Virus record (IMG/VR): IMGVR_UViG_2547132077_000001
Coordinates: 1 to 38,217 of that record
Direction: 5' to 3' (one strand)
Origin: a virus
Lineage: Duplodnaviria; Heunggongvirae; Uroviricota; Caudoviricetes
Length of the DNA stretch: 38,217 nt
In this document: positions 25,242-31,231 of the stretch, one piece after another
Layout of the letters: each line of letters begins with the position of its first letter
Position numbering within the stretch: the first letter of the stretch is position 1
Notes under the pieces: model-generated
Database searches by the model: none
Seen by the model: the letters and a program-made list of their open reading frames with translations, nothing else
What the model was told of the DNA's origin: nothing
Program-made: the position numbers and the translations under genes

Positions 25242-25420
25242 CTTGTTTTCCTCGCACGTTCTCTAAGCCACCGGATATCCCACAGGTGAGCCGTGTAATT
25301 GAAGGTTTTTACGTCAGATTCTTTTGGGATTGGCTTGGATTTATTTCTGGAGCGTTTCGTTGGAAGGTATTTGCAGTTTTCGCAGATTATGTCGGTGATA
25401 CTTCGTCGCTGTCGCCTCAT
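25238..25420 (-). CDS. ninE: NinE
   Basis: Internal Met of the track ORF gives [60 protein letters not shown], 60 aa, matching lambda NinE as recalled. Confidence 0.85.
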
Positions 25421-25944
25421 GCCGCCCTCCTGACGCCCTGCCCGATCGCCATCAATGCCGCTTTGGATACGGTAGTAAACATCCGTCGAGGACTGATGAA
25501 CGGTCGCCAAATCAGTAGCATGGAGCCTTTGCTGTTTCCCTTCTTCTCCAGCCCTGTCGATGGTTCGATAAAATTAATCCGTCCATCAGTGATAATGCGA
25601 ACTTCGTCGACACTCTCCAGAGCCTTGCTGAACCATCCGACTGACATATCCTCTGGCACAAGCATAACTACCGTCTGTCGCTGTTGTATGCACTGCTCAG
25701 CGGCTTTTTCCACCCACGGCCTGATATTGCTGTACGGTGGGTTATTCCAGATTGCACCGTGGCTTACCCACTCAGAATTGAGCGCGTCGTCGGCCTCAGT
25801 TAGCCAGTGAGCACACAGAGCATTTTTGTCGCTCGCTGCCGAATCCAGCCAGAATCCAAACTCAATATCCAGTGCATCAAAAAGCCAAAGCGGCGTTTGC
25901 CAGCAGTCCTTGTCGTGTGCTGGCGTATTTGATTTGATAGTCAT
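25417..25944 (-). CDS. Phage Dam-like DNA N6-adenine methyltransferase
   Basis: Start placed at the internal Met ([23 protein letters not shown]...) overlapping the ninB stop; NPPY catalytic motif (WNNPPYS); about 175 aa. Confidence 0.8.
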
Positions 25945-26381
25945 GCAGCCCGATCTCCCCATCGCGCTTTCCACTCCAGAGCCAGTCGCGCTTCGTCTGA
26001 CCACTTAACGCCACGCTCTGTACCGAATGCCTGTATAAGCTCTAATAGCTCCGCAAATTCGCCTACACGCATCCTGCTGGTTGACTGGCCGATTACCACA
26101 AAGCCATTCCCGGCAAGGTTAGGAACAACGTCTTGCTGCTTTAATGCTGCGGTAAACACACACTTCCAGCTTTCTGCATCCAGCCAGCGACCATGCCATT
26201 CAACCTGACGAGAGACGTCACCAAGGCAAGCCCAAAGCTTTCGATTCTGGTCTAAGCTGCGGTTGCGTTCCTGGATGGTCACTACGATTGGTTTGGTTGG
26301 GTCTGGAAGAATTTGCTGTACTGCGTGAATAGCGTTTTGCTGATGTGCTGGAGATCGAATTTCAAAGGTTAGTTTTTTCAT
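25941..26381 (-). CDS. ninB: NinB (Orf family recombination mediator)
   Basis: Internal Met gives MKKLTFEIRSPAHQQNAIHAVQQILPDPTKPIVVTIQERNRSLDQNRKLWA..., matching lambda NinB as recalled. Confidence 0.9.
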   Translation of the reverse strand: MKKLTFEIRSPAHQQNAIHAVQQILPDPTKPIVVTIQERNRSLDQNRKLWACLGDVSRQVEWHGRWLDAESWKCVFTAALKQQDVVPNLAGNGFVVIGQSTSRMRVGEFAELLELIQAFGTERGVKWSDEARLALEWKARWGDRAA

Positions 26382-26458
26382 GACTTCCCTCTCCCCCAAA
26401 TAAAAAGGCCTGCGATTACCAGCAGGCCTGTTATTAGCTCAGTGATGTAGATGGTCAT

Positions 26459-28339
26459 TTAATACTCCGTCACGTTTTCCTGTCGCCACGCCTCGTCATA
26501 TTCCGATTTCGGCATATTGGCGATGTAGCTATATGGCGATCCTGATTCAAGTTGCAGGAACTGGTGCGATTGCTCGTCAAGGAACAACGGGACACCACCC
26601 TCCCAACCTTCGCCGTTACGTTGTTTTTCAAGCATCAAAACAGATGCCGGAGATGCCAGTAGCTGTTCGTCCTTCTCTGACATCTTTTCACCACTCTGAA
26701 CTCTCTGTAACGCTCTCTCGCGAGCCTTGTTACGCCAGATGATGAAAAGGTTGTCTGTCAGGTCTGTTATCGCTCCAGAGCCTTTTACGTCCATTTTCCC
26801 GGTTGGTTTTTCTTCGCTGTCTCCTTTTCGCGAGTGAGTAACGAGAATGACGTGGGAGTTTGTTTTGTTTTTGAAGTCGCAAATCGAGTCAACAAACGCC
26901 TTCTGCCCGTTATAGTCATCGTCGCCTATGCCACATTTCATCAGGCTGTCGATGATGAATAACTGGATCCCGTATCGGCGGCGAGCGTAGTCGAATATTT
27001 CGATCAGCCTGTCGGCTTTCGCCGTTCCGGTCAGGCCAAACACCCAAAGTCTTTCGTCATAAAATTTAAATGCAGAGTCAATTTCCAGCACTGGCGGCAT
27101 CTTGCAGCACGTCGCCTGACGGGTAAGGCGCTTAAGGAGAATACCAGGCTTCAGCTCAAGTGACGCGATGCACGTCTTCACACCCTGACGCATTGCCTCA
27201 AGTGCCATATGCCCGACAACCTCCGTTTTTCCGTGACCGTTCACACCATTGACCAGCGTCAACTCGGCCTCACGGAACTGGAATTTATCTGCCAGAGATT
27301 CCCACGGTGGATTAAACAGATACTGCTGCTTGCCGTAGAAAGCGTTGATAGTGTCCTGGTAAAACTCTCGCGCGCTGTAGAGTTCTTCAGGGTCGAAGTA
27401 GGATGCCGTGCCGATGTACTGCCAGATTTCATCCTCGGTAACACCGTTCATCAGGCATTCGTTGATGTCTTTGTACGGCAGAGTAACAAGACGGCAACGA
27501 TGTTCACCGAGTCGGCTTGCGATTTCCCTTGCGGCCTCACGACCAACATCATCAACGTCCATCGAGATGAATATTTCCTCAAACCTGTCGAGGTTGTGAT
27601 ACTCAAACTCAATCCACTGTTGCTTAGCGCCTTTCCCGCCACCAAACGGCACGGATAACGCCGAGATGCCGTATTGCGCATAGCTCATACAATCAATTTC
27701 GCCTTCGCAAAGTACAACCGCCCTCACGCCAGCGTCCAGAGCCTGCCATCCGAACAGACAAGGTTCGCAATCACCTTCTGCCATAATGACTTTCTTCCCG
27801 TCCGGGCGCTCAGTGCTGATTCGCTTGACCTGCAACAACTCACCATCGCGCTTGTACGGAAGCACCAGTGCATCAAGTTCTCGTTCTCCATTCCACACCT
27901 TGCCGCTGACAACCTCGTAGCGCTTTACGACTTCTGGCGATATGCCACGCGATTGCAGGTACTCAAGATGGGATTCTGTTCTGGTAACGTAGCGGGCGAT
28001 TTTCTTGCGGTCAGGTCTGGAGAATTTCTTCTCACGTTTGGCATCGAAATGGTGATCGTCATCCTTGATTCCGAGAAAGGCTTTCGCTTCCTGCATAGCC
28101 TGATGCAGGTTAATTCCACGACATGCCATCCACAAATCAAGCATGTCACCGCCGTCTCCCTCAGCGAAATCAGCCCATTTTTTCTTGCCGCTAAGGTTGA
28201 CCTTAAGGCTGTTTCCCTTGTCACCGTTGACGTTACCGGCAACCCACTCATGCCCCTCTTTCTTGCCGTTTGGCAACAGGTGCGGAGCCACCCTGTCAAC
28301 CTGCGCCCAAAGCAGGTCACTGAGTTCACTTGGCGTCAT
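26459..28339 (-). CDS. Bifunctional replicative primase-helicase (TOPRIM-like primase domain plus DnaB/RepA-like P-loop helicase domain)
   Basis: 626 aa; Walker A-like VNGVNGHGKT and Walker B-like LFIIDSL in the C-terminal half; central acidic metal-binding-like motifs; follows the initiator gene. Confidence 0.8.
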   Translation of the reverse strand: MTPSELSDLLWAQVDRVAPHLLPNGKKEGHEWVAGNVNGDKGNSLKVNLSGKKKWADFAEGDGGDMLDLWMACRGINLHQAMQEAKAFLGIKDDDHHFDAKREKKFSRPDRKKIARYVTRTESHLEYLQSRGISPEVVKRYEVVSGKVWNGERELDALVLPYKRDGELLQVKRISTERPDGKKVIMAEGDCEPCLFGWQALDAGVRAVVLCEGEIDCMSYAQYGISALSVPFGGGKGAKQQWIEFEYHNLDRFEEIFISMDVDDVGREAAREIASRLGEHRCRLVTLPYKDINECLMNGVTEDEIWQYIGTASYFDPEELYSAREFYQDTINAFYGKQQYLFNPPWESLADKFQFREAELTLVNGVNGHGKTEVVGHMALEAMRQGVKTCIASLELKPGILLKRLTRQATCCKMPPVLEIDSAFKFYDERLWVFGLTGTAKADRLIEIFDYARRRYGIQLFIIDSLMKCGIGDDDYNGQKAFVDSICDFKNKTNSHVILVTHSRKGDSEEKPTGKMDVKGSGAITDLTDNLFIIWRNKARERALQRVQSGEKMSEKDEQLLASPASVLMLEKQRNGEGWEGGVPLFLDEQSHQFLQLESGSPYSYIANMPKSEYDEAWRQENVTEY

Positions 28340-28446
28340 GATTCCCTCAGATTGAGATTTTTAAACCAGAAATCGACAAACGAAATACTTAACCAGCCGT
28401 GGTTATAACCAGCGACCAGTAGCGATTTGATTTTTGATTTCATGGT

Positions 28447-29307
28447 TCACCTGTCGAAAAACACGTAGCCAGTTTTCGATACGGTGATTGCGGATGATGG
28501 TTTGGATTGTGGTTGAATAGTTTCTGGCTTCTCGTCGTTCCAGCGCTGACCGTTCAGGTAGCTCGATGGTAACAACCTGTCGAATCCGAACTGCTTACCA
28601 TTCCTGCATGCGATGTCTTCTGCCAGCATCGTGGCAAACTCGCTTGCCGTACCCTTGGTAGTTTTACGCCATTCCCTGAACTGTGTTCTGAATGCTGAAG
28701 CTGCGTTTTTCTTCCCGGCTTTCCGCATGCCTGCACACCAGAATATTTCCTCGAATGCCTTGTCGGTTTCTTCGTGACGGTCAGATGATTTTTCACACTC
28801 CGTCCGAACACTTTCGGACATAGTGTTTTTATTATTTCTTTTTTCTTTTGTAATAGTTTCTTTTGTGTGTCCCTGTTTTGGTGACAGCGCTGTCACCGTT
28901 TTGGTGACACTTTTTGTCACCAATGCAGTGACATTATCACCAGAGTAGTGACACCCTTCGATTTGCCATTCCTCGATGTTCTTGTTAGGCCCGATTTGCT
29001 GGCCTTCGCGAAGGATTACCTTCATCGCGATAAGCTCATTCTTGGCCTTGTTTACCTTCTGTCTTGGCAGCCTGGTAATTTGAGCTAACTGACTATCAGA
29101 GATGCGATCCATCTTTTTACCGTAGCCGTATGTTTTACGGCATATGGCGTGGGCAACCTTGCTCTGATTTTTCGTTAAATCTGCGCCGATAAGCTCTTCA
29201 TACAGGGCATTTGCAAGACGGGTATAACCATCTTCAACTTCTGCCACACGACGCTCCACAGGCCGTTGTGAAGGCCTTAAATGTGTTACGGTTGCAAGAT
29301 TACTCAT
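28447..29307 (-). CDS. Replication initiator, lambda O-like N-terminal domain
   Basis: 286 aa; N-terminal region resembles the origin-binding domain of phage O proteins; iterons lie inside the gene; position after cII. Confidence 0.75.
28875..28955. repeat. Candidate replication origin iterons (GGTGACA / TGTCACC repeats) inside the initiator gene
   Basis: GGTGACAGCGCTGTCACC (perfect 18-bp palindrome), GGTGACActttttGTCACC, then further GTGACA copies within about 80 bp. Confidence 0.65.

Positions 29308-29878: not shown

Positions 29879-31231
<1,353 letters not shown>

Follow-up and report, generated by a model that had tools for sequence, protein, structure and literature searches.

A predicted lambda-type replication origin with TGTCAC iterons inside the O-like initiator gene of a tailed phage

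The replication origin of phage lambda lies within the gene for its own initiator, the O protein. The O proteins of lambda and the Stx phages bind iterons of the kind described here, and mutation of the iterons abolishes plasmid replication (PMC7466680). Work cited in PMC2629481 assigns origin binding in lambda to the 162 N-terminal residues of O. The origin of phage P22 is annotated as 'similar to phage lambda' (P22 record; PMC8022706). In phage ES18 (GenBank AY736146), a rep_origin described as 'similar to lambda ori' is found in gene 59, upstream of the gene for gp61, a 'putative primase/helicase', and the pairing of a lambda-like origin with a primase-helicase is already known from that record and is not new. 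The Stx phages 933W and P27 resemble the locus described here in having an O-family initiator with iterons and an A/T tract inside O, but differ from it in their six iterons of lambda specificity and their P-type partner. The origins of iteron plasmids are built from direct, non-palindromic iterons of 17-22 bp, and their Rep_3-family initiator is encoded beside, not around, the origin. In satellite phage P4, the alpha primase-helicase recognises TGTTCACC repeats in the P4 origin.

Here we describe a locus of the lambda type in a stretch of 38,217 nucleotides from a virus of the Caudoviricetes (IMG/VR record IMGVR_UViG_2547132077_000001, positions 1 to 38,217), the whole of which is referred to below as the window. 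Positions 28802/28820-28953 are very probably a theta (bidirectional) replication origin on the lambda plan, predicted within the linker-coding part of the initiator gene (Table 1). The assignment is based on the anatomy of the region, its homology to lambda ori, selection at the DNA level and the co-inheritance of modules. In the searchable literature we found neither a mapped origin nor a binding experiment for this or any other phage with TGTCAC iterons, and no description of the origin in connection with GGTGACA/TGTCACC iterons or with the replication of Sf101 and mEp043; older or subscription work, such as the comparisons of the lambda, phi80 and 82 origins made in 1979-81, may mention the class.

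Table 1. Features of the predicted origin and its surroundings, in window coordinates; a dot marks features assigned to neither strand.
Feature	Position	Strand	Basis
Primase-helicase, 626 aa, Toprim and DnaB-family ATPase, partner replication protein	26459..28339	-	Pfam, PHROG
ORF of 35 aa separating O from the primase-helicase, counterpart of ES18 gene 60	28336..28443	-	ORF
O-like replication initiator gene, 286 aa, with the predicted origin inside	28447..29307	-	ORF, Pfam and PHROG
O C-terminal domain (residues 166-286), proposed to recruit the primase-helicase	28450..28812	-	Co-occurrence and AF2
Dyad GTCCGAA-AGTG-TTCGGAC, possible third origin element	28802..28819	.	Inverted repeat, conservation, compensatory changes
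A/T-rich tract with strand asymmetry (gene strand rich in A), probable DNA unwinding element	28820..28867	-	Composition, stability, lambda homology
Iteron D (lambda iteron 4 by position), TGTCACCAAAACAGGGACA	28868..28886	.	2 mismatches to consensus
18-bp perfect palindrome GGTGACAGCGCTGTCACC	28880..28897	.	Where iterons D and C meet
Iteron C (lambda iteron 3 by position), TGTCACCAAAACGGTGACA, perfect dyad	28891..28909	.	0 mismatches
Iteron B (lambda iteron 2 by position), TGTCACTGCATTGGTGACA	28915..28933	.	1 mismatch
Iteron A (lambda iteron 1 by position), TGTCACTACTCTGGTGATA on the gene strand	28935..28953	.	2 mismatches to consensus
N-terminal origin-binding domain, Phage_rep_O, predicted winged helix	28966..29250	-	Pfam match and AF2 model
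Putative recognition helix, 10 residues, aa 80-89	29041..29070	-	Alignment against iteron table

Residues 20-114 of the initiator match the Pfam family Phage_rep_O (PF04492; E = 1.1e-37; score 128.9 bits, cut-off 28.7), Pfam reports no other family for the protein at E <= 0.01, and its PHROG category is 'replication initiation O-like'. It is 99% identical to the 'replication protein O' of phages Sf101, mEp043, SEN22 and vB_EcoP-720R6. An AF2 model built on a 16-sequence alignment is of medium confidence (mean pLDDT 59), whereas the single-sequence model (43.7) was unusable. In the former, the N-terminal domain is predicted to contain helices at residues 46-60, 71-78 and 82-94 and a beta-hairpin at 98-107 (pLDDT 66-85), and a helical domain is predicted at residues 179-258 of the C-terminal part (pLDDT 66-83). 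No solved relative was found in the PDB by sequence searches with O or with a profile of the N-domain. A Foldseek search of the PDB with the model brings mostly winged-helix regulators to the top, all as weak, non-significant matches (E >= 0.06), and this list is consistent with the model but counts as no evidence for it. Residues 117-175, the peptide encoded across the iteron region, are predicted by AF2 to be disordered (pLDDT 30-34), so that the origin DNA would be free to act as a site.

The downstream partner was initially annotated as a primase-helicase rather than a helicase loader, and its domains agree: it matches Toprim_2 (E = 3e-12), AAA_25 and DnaB_C in Pfam, which detects no extra DNA-binding domain in it, and PHROG 239, 'DNA primase/helicase' (E = 2e-171). 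A small ORF is also annotated at the position of the intervening 35-residue reading frame in ES18, epsilon34, g341c and LMessi. The gap from O to the primase-helicase gene is ~110 nt in eight of the nine diverged relatives with downstream flank, and ~20 nt in the ninth, L104.

The iteron unit is a 19-bp dyad, TGTCAC-N7-GTGACA, of which four copies, A to D, lie between the parts of the gene that code for the N- and C-domains, spanning codons 119-147 with start-to-start spacings of 20, 24 and 23 bp. The initial annotation had described GGTGACA/TGTCACC units packed inside the O-like gene; exact copies indeed stand at 28880(+), 28891(-), 28903(+) and 28915(-), with further GTGACA at 28928 and 28948, and chance does not come near to explaining their clustering. 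The window has 25 TGTCAC/GTGACA hexamers, six of which fall within 86 bp, where 0.056 would be expected (Poisson P = 4e-11, or about 2e-8 when corrected for window position). The longer motif TGTCACC-N5-GGTGACA, at up to 3 mismatches, has six matches in the window against 1.14 expected, a number reached in none of 100 shuffles; four of these matches make up the cluster (with 2, 0, 1 and 2 mismatches), and the window contains no second iteron-like cluster. The right arm of iteron D is degenerate, as it also is in lambda iteron 4, and merges into the family-wide ACACAAAAGA motif. The cluster had been placed at 28875-28955, which is correct as to location but begins too far to the right, the actual start being at 28868, 7 bp further left. 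The 18-bp perfect palindrome that had been singled out within it exists at 28880-28897 but is incidental, since it consists of the right arm of one iteron and the left arm of the next. Its 4-bp GCGC centre varies in 12 relatives that keep both arms (ACCC, GCCC, CAGC, GCCA, GCGA, GAGG and GGGG), and because the centre is not conserved the palindrome was rejected both as a unit and as a cruciform or restriction-like site.

An AT-rich region suitable for unwinding had been proposed as something to look for next to the repeats, and one is present directly past the iterons, at 28820-28866/7. This tract comprises about 47 bp at ~17% G+C (+ strand T32 A7 G5 C3), with a 40-bp section of 15% G+C and an AT skew between -0.6 and -0.8. 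Its duplex stability is the lowest of any 40-mer in the window (z = 3.4) once a low-GC island at about 1.1-1.7 kb, the only less stable DNA, is set aside. The tract is nearly identical to the A/T-rich region of lambda ori and starts with ACACAAAAGA, a feature common to all 14 O-family phages in the comparison. By these features it is a probable DNA unwinding element.

Conservation at the DNA level was assessed on two sets of genes. A search of IMG/VR with the whole O protein gave only genes that are 99-100% identical, which served for a polymorphism test and were useless for covariation. Among 68 such near-identical alleles, 1 of 104 positions in the half-sites and A/T tract is variable, compared with 88 of 757 in the rest of the gene (Fisher P = 1e-4); restricted to third codon positions, the comparison gives 0 of 36 against 59 of 251 (P = 2e-4), and within the A/T tract 0 of 48 sites vary. 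In 12 genes with 67-85% protein identity, third-position identity at the codons of invariant residues is 0.93 in the iterons and 0.95 in the A/T tract, compared with 0.64 in the N-domain and 0.57 in the C-domain, a freeze of synonymous sites that would be compatible, too, with a different role of the DNA or RNA at the same place. The consensus of 52 iterons is again TGTCAC-N7-GTGACA, the left arm being conserved in 51-52 of the 52 and the centre and inter-iteron spacers being variable. Throughout the 14 O-family phages, the iterons keep the same ungapped register upstream of the conserved ACACAAAAGA motif.

The lambda arrangement, with ori inside O, had been invoked for this locus from the outset, and the comparison is borne out by the same number, length, dyad symmetry and spacing of iterons and by the homologous A/T tract. 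The spacings are identical to those of the lambda iterons at 39034/39054/39078/39101, the iterons start at about codon 117 in lambda and at codon 119 in the window, and in both cases the origin is found inside a Phage_rep_O gene, between the domains, with an A-rich tract beginning with ACACAAAAGA followed by a palindrome. The N-domains of the two O proteins are 53% identical. The differences lie in the half-site, which is TCCCTC/GAGGGA in lambda as opposed to TGTCAC/GTGACA, in the putative recognition helix, which in lambda is LPVKRCNEAK, unlike residues 80-89 of the window protein, in the C-domain, which is unrelated, in the palindrome beyond the tract, which has another sequence, and in the partner, which in lambda is P together with host DnaB and DnaG instead of a phage primase-helicase. 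The window thus agrees with a lambda-type origin in gene location, O family, iterons, A/T tract and the correlation of iteron sequence with N-domain. A strict lambda replicon has TCCCTC/GAGGGA specificity and a P-type loader, and the window has neither.

Other phages share parts of this plan. Gene 18 of P22, also of the O family, has its four dyad iterons in register with those of the window, and ACACAAAAGA and an A-rich tract come after them, but its half-site is TTTACC/GGTAAA, its partner, gene 12, is a DnaB-type helicase, and the palindrome past the tract reads CCCCCTTACCCCC..GGGGG. In ES18, the origin is annotated at a position equivalent to that in the window, and the C-domain of gp59 and the primase-helicase gp61 are 96.7% and 94.2% identical to their counterparts; ES18, epsilon34 and g341c all share with the window the distal A/T tract, the GTCCGAAAGTGTTCGGAC dyad and the small intervening ORF. 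The window therefore carries an ES18-type replication module, made up of the C-domain, the 35-aa ORF at the position of gp60 and the primase-helicase. ES18 differs in its lambda N-domain (54.5% identical to that of the window) and its TCCCTC iterons, the mosaic joint being at window position 28880. Iteron-plasmid origins (Rep_3/RepA/pi) are of another kind, as the units in the window are internally palindromic and lie inside a Phage_rep_O initiator gene.

Comparison within the O family also points to the part of the protein that may read the iterons. Residues 80-89 are identical where the half-site is the same and different where it differs, and the alignment columns that vary between iteron classes, while staying invariant inside each class, are concentrated in residues 81-90. 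The helix found in the window goes with TGTCACC in the window itself, in PhiR12, in Proteus vB_BPM-V3 and in 11 diverged relatives. Helix ISRSKANIAK pairs with the half-site TGTTACC/TGTATCC, LSRQNVNKAK with TGTCTCC, LPVKRCNEAK with TCCCTC (lambda and ES18), IHHTHVC(T/A)AK with TTAGCC, and MAPTKCSTAK/ILPHKCSAAK with TTTACC. Iteron sequence thus appears to match the specificity of the cognate N-domain, both changing together across the family, in a correlation that covers 14 phages and 11 further diverged relatives of the window's class; the roughly six specificity classes among them are not independent of one another in phylogeny. On the alignment and the model, residues 80-89 are the putative recognition helix.

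Natural recombinants separate the modules from one another. The PhiR12 phages (PV340549-54) have an identical N-domain, iterons and proximal A/T tract but lambda P as partner, Proteus vB_BPM-V3, with an N-domain 68.6% identical to that of the window, combines the same TGTCACC iterons with a DnaB-type helicase, and ES18, epsilon34 and g341c join lambda-type iterons to the C-domain and primase-helicase of the window. It follows from these swaps that the iterons go with the N-domain and the partner with the C-domain. PhiR12 and V3 differ from the window in C-domains and post-tract palindromes that match their own partners, and neither record carries an origin annotation. A C-domain of at least 86% identity is accompanied by the primase-helicase in 31 of 31 phage records, and more distant pairs also occur together in Fraca, LMessi, CharmingMan, ValSw3-3 and 1.135.O, a co-occurrence that could partly reflect simple linkage. 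Eight Salmonella phages (the SI8 group) pair this primase-helicase with another initiator, of which only the final 17-18 residues are shared. The mosaic boundaries are found where homology begins in PhiR12 (from 28835) or ends in the Stx2 phages, NM-3 and phiKp_30 (to 28831/2) and in the ES18 type (to 28880).

The dyad past the A/T tract behaves differently from the iterons in that it follows the C-domain/partner module rather than the iterons. Its arms are invariant in the 68 alleles. In 16 diverged sequences 89% of cells are paired, with a compensatory switch from T:A to C:G (8 versus 7 sequences), a covariation score that is reached by none of 500 shuffles, while slid controls are 2-48% paired; the switch requires paired substitutions of Ser/Thr to Pro/Ala in O. 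Modules of the P, DnaB and primase-helicase types each carry a palindrome of their own at this position, and the dyad persists in Fraca and LMessi, although the N-domain of their initiators is unrelated. The GTCCGA dyad does not extend to every member of the wider C-domain family, being absent from the Vibrio phages PVA1, D65 and ValSw3-3 and rearranged in Min27. We offer as a tentative and rather doubtful proposal that the dyad is a partner-specific signal at which the C-domain assembles the primase-helicase, permitting initiation without host DnaB, DnaC and DnaG, and possibly without DnaK/DnaJ.

A scheme for initiation, in which iteron binding and unwinding by O are carried over by analogy from the lambda family, can be outlined as follows. 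Dimers of the O-like protein would bind the four 19-bp iterons, about two helical turns apart, through the winged-helix N-domain and its helix at residues 80-89. The resulting nucleoprotein complex (the 'O-some') would strain and open the adjacent A/T tract at 28820-28867, and rightward early transcription from a 434-type pR, crossing the origin region, would probably aid the opening. The C-domain, unrelated to the P-binding domain of lambda O, would bring in the T7-gp4-like primase-helicase, which would load on the opened DNA and prime synthesis, replacing the P-mediated hijacking of host DnaB and DnaG seen in lambda; we infer that recruitment would be direct and that the enzyme would load itself.

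Other readings of the repeats deserve consideration. They might be binding sites of the primase-helicase itself, as in satellite phage P4, with O having another role; TGTCACC resembles the P4 type-I repeat TGTTCACC, and the primase-helicase gene lies about 500 bp downstream. This very unlikely reading was rejected on inheritance patterns, since the iteron type is inherited with the N-domain of O and not with the helicase: identical iterons accompany lambda P in PhiR12, the same type accompanies a DnaB-type helicase in Proteus V3, and primase-helicases 94-95% identical to that of the window accompany TCCCTC iterons in ES18, epsilon34 and g341c. The protein is, moreover, T7 gp4-like (Toprim_2 plus DnaB_C/AAA_25), with no extra DNA-binding domain found by Pfam. 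It is improbable, too, that the sites bind O for autoregulation, copy control or incompatibility and that replication starts elsewhere. Plasmid iterons do also act in copy control, but a homologue of the experimentally defined unwinding region of lambda adjoins the iterons and is invariant in the 68 alleles, the curated ES18 and P22 records put the origin at the equivalent spot, and the window offers no other iteron-like cluster, the less stable island at 1.1-1.7 kb being devoid of such repeats.

The region encodes V-T-rich peptide repeats, and the units could in principle lack a DNA-level function, having arisen as a side effect of a repetitive linker peptide (VTK/VTA), through internal duplication or by chance. 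We give this hardly any credence, as the four units are read in three frames (0, 2, 2 and 1), their 20/24/23-bp spacings are not all multiples of 3, each is an inverted repeat that a coding repeat leaves unexplained, synonymous positions are nearly frozen (0.93 versus about 0.6), and the hexamers cluster at P of about 2e-8. Equally far-fetched is the view that the region is mainly a recombination joint, conserved because a shared lambdoid A/T tract lets N- and C-domain modules shuffle. Three independent mosaic boundaries, at 28831/2, 28835 and 28880, speak for such shuffling, but it would be a consequence of origin function and not an alternative to it, and it leaves unexplained both the dyad iterons that change with the DNA-binding helix and the frozen half-sites.

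Read as a lambda-type origin, the element is an ordinary one, and a clear further example with a different binding-site specificity. The pair formed by the helix at residues 80-89 and TGTCAC extends a series of about six O-family specificities that occur in nature in one and the same structural register, a series that is handy for learning how proteins of the winged-helix O family recognise DNA and for the design of orthogonal replicons of the lambda type. The same iterons are combined in nature with three helicase solutions, namely P, a DnaB-type helicase and a primase-helicase, and these combinations are ready-made constructs for asking how opened DNA passes from an O-type initiator to a primase-helicase that is self-contained, and whether the dyad is involved. 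This kind of element is textbook material, and the main value of the assignment therefore lies in correct annotation. The origin type is present and unannotated in phages Sf101, mEp043, SEN22, vB_EcoP-720R6 and PhiR12, and likewise in 175 of 5,426 complete E. coli genomes.

The element inside the O-like gene is, to judge from its sequence, a lambda-type origin that has a different iteron specificity and is joined to a primase-helicase module of the ES18 type. The repeat motifs recorded there by the initial annotation are found in their places, and the repeat unit is a 19-bp iteron, internally dyad-symmetric and present in four copies. Six of the 25 TGTCAC/GTGACA hexamers of the window fall inside 86 bp, where 0.056 are expected (P = 4e-11, about 2e-8 when corrected for position), and TGTCACC-N5-GGTGACA (up to 3 mismatches) has six sites in the window against 1.14 expected, a number reached in 0 of 100 shuffles; four of these six make up the cluster. 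The iteron cluster is not due to chance. The 18-bp perfect palindrome described earlier (28880-97) does exist but is not a unit: it forms where the right arm of one iteron meets the left arm of the following one. It is incidental, since its 4-bp centre differs (ACCC, GCCC, CAGC, GCCA, GCGA, GAGG or GGGG) among the 12 relatives that retain both arms. Peptide repeats are ruled out as an explanation because the four iterons are read in frames 0, 2, 2 and 1, and the repeats are therefore a feature of the DNA.

The iteron starts lie 20, 24 and 23 bp apart on the gene strand, exactly as in lambda, where iterons 1-4 are at 39034, 39054, 39078 and 39101 in the annotation of NC_001416. Directly past the last iteron the window reads CAGGGACACACAAAAGAAACTATTACAAAAGAAAAAAGAAA and lambda reads CAGGGGGACACAAAAGACACTATTACAAAAGAAAAAAGAAA, and the A/T tract of the window (28820-28867) is homologous to the lambda unwinding region. 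An A/T-rich tract of this kind had been proposed as a check on the origin; it includes a 40-bp interval of 15% G+C that is strongly strand-asymmetric, and is the least stable 40-mer of the window apart from a low-GC island at 1.1-1.7 kb (z = 3.4). The identical spacing and the homologous tract support the earlier suggestion of a lambda-like ori within the O-like gene. The island (window ~800-1700; 40-mers of 10-23% G+C, including the five least stable in the window) harbors no iteron-like repeats; it probably represents a region of accessory genes gained by horizontal transfer.

The genome itself is that of a P22-like lambdoid phage or prophage. Sf6, HK620 and Sf101 share long stretches with it at 96-98% identity, and a phage 434-type immunity region is found at 29879-30830, with a cI N-terminal domain similar to the 434 repressor of known structure (E = 9e-38) and a cro ORF that we take to resemble 434 Cro. 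The downstream partner had been called a primase-helicase, and its domains bear this out. A DNA methylase-like ORF and the end of NinB share about 60 nt (window 25417-26004 and 25941-26399, minus strand), as is annotated in Sf101.

Features of the probable origin and its neighborhood; genes are in leftward order on the + strand, the direction of early rightward transcription
Feature	Window position	Strand	Remarks
cro			first in order
cII			after cro; Pfam Phage_CII
48-aa DUF2740-like ORF			between cII and O-like gene
O-like gene	28447-29307	-	Phage_rep_O at aa 20-114, E = 1e-37
Iteron	28935-28953		
Iteron	28915-28933		
Iteron	28891-28909		
Iteron	28868-28886		
Dyad GTCCGAA-AGTG-TTCGGAC	28802-28819		just past A/T tract
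35-aa ORF	28336-28443	-	between O and primase-helicase; position of ES18 gene 60
Primase-helicase, 626 aa	26459-28339		Toprim_2 + DnaB_C/AAA_25
NinB			next after primase-helicase

O-family genes were taken at falling N-domain identity and their origin regions aligned on the motif ACACAAAAGA. All 14 phages have dyad iterons upstream of this motif in one ungapped register, four in each and five in PhiR26_1, and the half-site varies in step with aa 80-89 of the N-domain, a segment of ten residues. Columns that are invariant inside an iteron class yet variable across classes are concentrated at aa 81-90. An AF2 model from a 16-sequence alignment places the segment in helix 82-94 (pLDDT 66-85), the third helix of a helix-turn-helix that is followed by a beta-hairpin wing. 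The segment may thus be the recognition helix, an assignment kept tentative because the model is of medium quality and its similarity to winged-helix regulators in fold comparison is weak.

Half-sites and aa 80-89 segments of O-family initiators
Segment	Half-site	Phages
window type	TGTCACC	window, PhiR12_1, Proteus vB_BPM-V3
ISRSKANIAK	TGTTACC / TGTATCC	Midgardsormr38, phiEt88, Omnitron
LSRQNVNKAK	TGTCTCC	Pocitis76, Bas106
LPVKRCNEAK	TCCCTC	lambda, ES18
IHHTHVC(T/A)AK	TTAGCC	Yen21.09, mEp213
MAPTKCSTAK / ILPHKCSAAK	TTTACC	P22, PhiR26_1

Selection on the DNA is seen at two depths. Among 68 alleles, including the window, from 80 IMG/VR loci, 89 sites of the O gene vary, and they occupy 1 of 104 half-site and A/T-tract positions versus 88 of 757 others (Fisher P = 1e-4) and, at third codon positions, 0 of 36 versus 59 of 251 elsewhere (P = 2e-4); within the cluster, iteron centres or inter-iteron spacers account for four of the five variable sites. 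The window-type segment and iterons are also retained in all 11 diverged relatives (67-85% protein identity) from Salmonella, Pseudescherichia, Citrobacter, Klebsiella, Pantoea and metagenomes. Of 52 iterons, 51-52 keep each position of the left arm TGTCAC, and the right arm GTGACA is kept at 51/37/52/47/41/51, around a variable centre. In codons for invariant residues, mean pairwise third-position identity reaches 0.93 for the iterons and 0.95 for the A/T tract; the N-domain has 0.64 and the C-domain 0.57. A disordered structure is predicted for the peptide encoded over the origin (aa 117-175; pLDDT 30-34), which accounts for the DNA being able to carry a second function.

Megablast reveals the O-like gene as a mosaic with its joint inside the origin. 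The PhiR12 phages are 99.8% identical over 28835-29307, encompassing the N-domain, iterons and proximal A/T tract, past which, unlike the window, they have a lambda-type C-domain and lambda P. Homology covers 28447-28880 in ES18, epsilon34, g341c and Oslo, and 28447-28831/2 in Stx2 phages, NM-3 and phiKp_30. ES18 differs from the window in having lambda-type iterons, with a rep_origin annotated "similar to lambda ori", and its gp61 is annotated "putative primase/helicase; similar to phage T7 gene 4". Three independent mosaic boundaries lie within the origin: the PhiR12 start and the Stx2/NM-3/phiKp_30 end (28831-28835), and the ES18-type end (28880). The conserved A/T tract appears to be the crossover point between N-domain+iteron and C-domain+partner modules.

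The primase-helicase is present in all 31 phage records that have the window C-domain at at least 86% identity, and more diverged pairs also stay together in Fraca, LMessi, CharmingMan, ValSw3-3 and 1.135.O. A Toprim_2/AAA_25 gene or a homologue lies downstream in all nine diverged relatives whose flank is long enough, at a distance of about 110 nt in all but one, where it is about 20 nt. From the 31 records and the swaps it follows that iterons go with the N-domain and helicase type with the C-domain, and this separate inheritance argues against the alternative that the primase-helicase itself reads the iterons. In lambda O, the N-terminus sets origin specificity and the C-terminus sets the partner, the same division of labor as in these modules. 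The mechanism is most likely that of lambda, adapted: by analogy, O dimers would bind the four dyad iterons, the complex would open the A/T tract, and the C-domain would, we infer, bring the primase-helicase to the opened DNA.

The dyad past the A/T tract goes with the C-domain/primase-helicase module, whereas lambda and the other P-type modules carry another palindrome, GAGAATTCTGGCGAATCCTC, at its position and DnaB-type modules have CCCCCTTACCCCC..GGGGG. Its arms are invariant in the 68 alleles and carry one mismatch in most relatives. In Fraca and LMessi, where the initiator's N-domain is unrelated and its C-domain just 54-59% identical, they again form a perfect 18-bp palindrome; the dyad is not present in the Vibrio relatives and is rearranged in Min27. 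Complementarity is kept at 89% of positions in 16 diverged sequences, and one pair is T:A in eight and C:G in seven, a switch for which the protein has to change from Ser/Thr to Pro/Ala in a coordinated way. The covariation score was reached by 0 of 500 shuffles (slid controls, 2-48% pairing), in sequences that are mutually related and for a dyad defined on the window's own sequence. The dyad is probably part of the origin.

Experiments on lambda, P27 and 933W have established that O binds the iterons and that they are required (PMC7466680); the iteron classes of these phages are other than that of the window. O-type "specificity types" have been described (PMC2629481; PMC8022706), and lambdoid P22-like phages with distant O homologues and an ES18-like primase-helicase are already on record (PMC10307801). 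The iteron specificity of the window origin is apparently undescribed: no account of a TGTCAC class turned up in the openly searchable literature, which excludes older and subscription works.

In the SI8-group phages a primase-helicase of 93.8% identity is paired with an unrelated HTH initiator (Salmonella phage SI8, L098, 1761-2393), the last 17 residues of which are identical to the C-terminus of the window O (window 28450-28503); this common tail is either a recombination joint or a minimal helicase-contacting peptide. In the Stx2 phages 24B, F403, F451, Xuzhou21 and Stx2_16002 and in phiKp_30, the primase-helicase homologue aligns in two pieces (2,904 nt versus 1,878), suggesting that the gene contains an insert of roughly 1 kb, whether an intein, a homing endonuclease or something else; in Min27 its first part is annotated 'replication protein P'. 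The initiators of Min27, Fraca and LMessi combine a window-type C-domain with other N-domains. Min27 has its own repeats, GGGGCAGGAGCTGCCC three times, at the equivalent place (L102, ~1380-1445), and Fraca and LMessi have four to five copies of AAGGGGCT (L095/L096, gene offsets ~185-205 and 450-478). Since these phages carry their own repeat sets there, an origin within the linker-coding region may be general beyond the Phage_rep_O family.

The window's variant is common, going by complete E. coli genomes: its 161-bp origin segment occurs in 175 of 5,426, with no annotation other than that of the "replication protein" gene that contains it.
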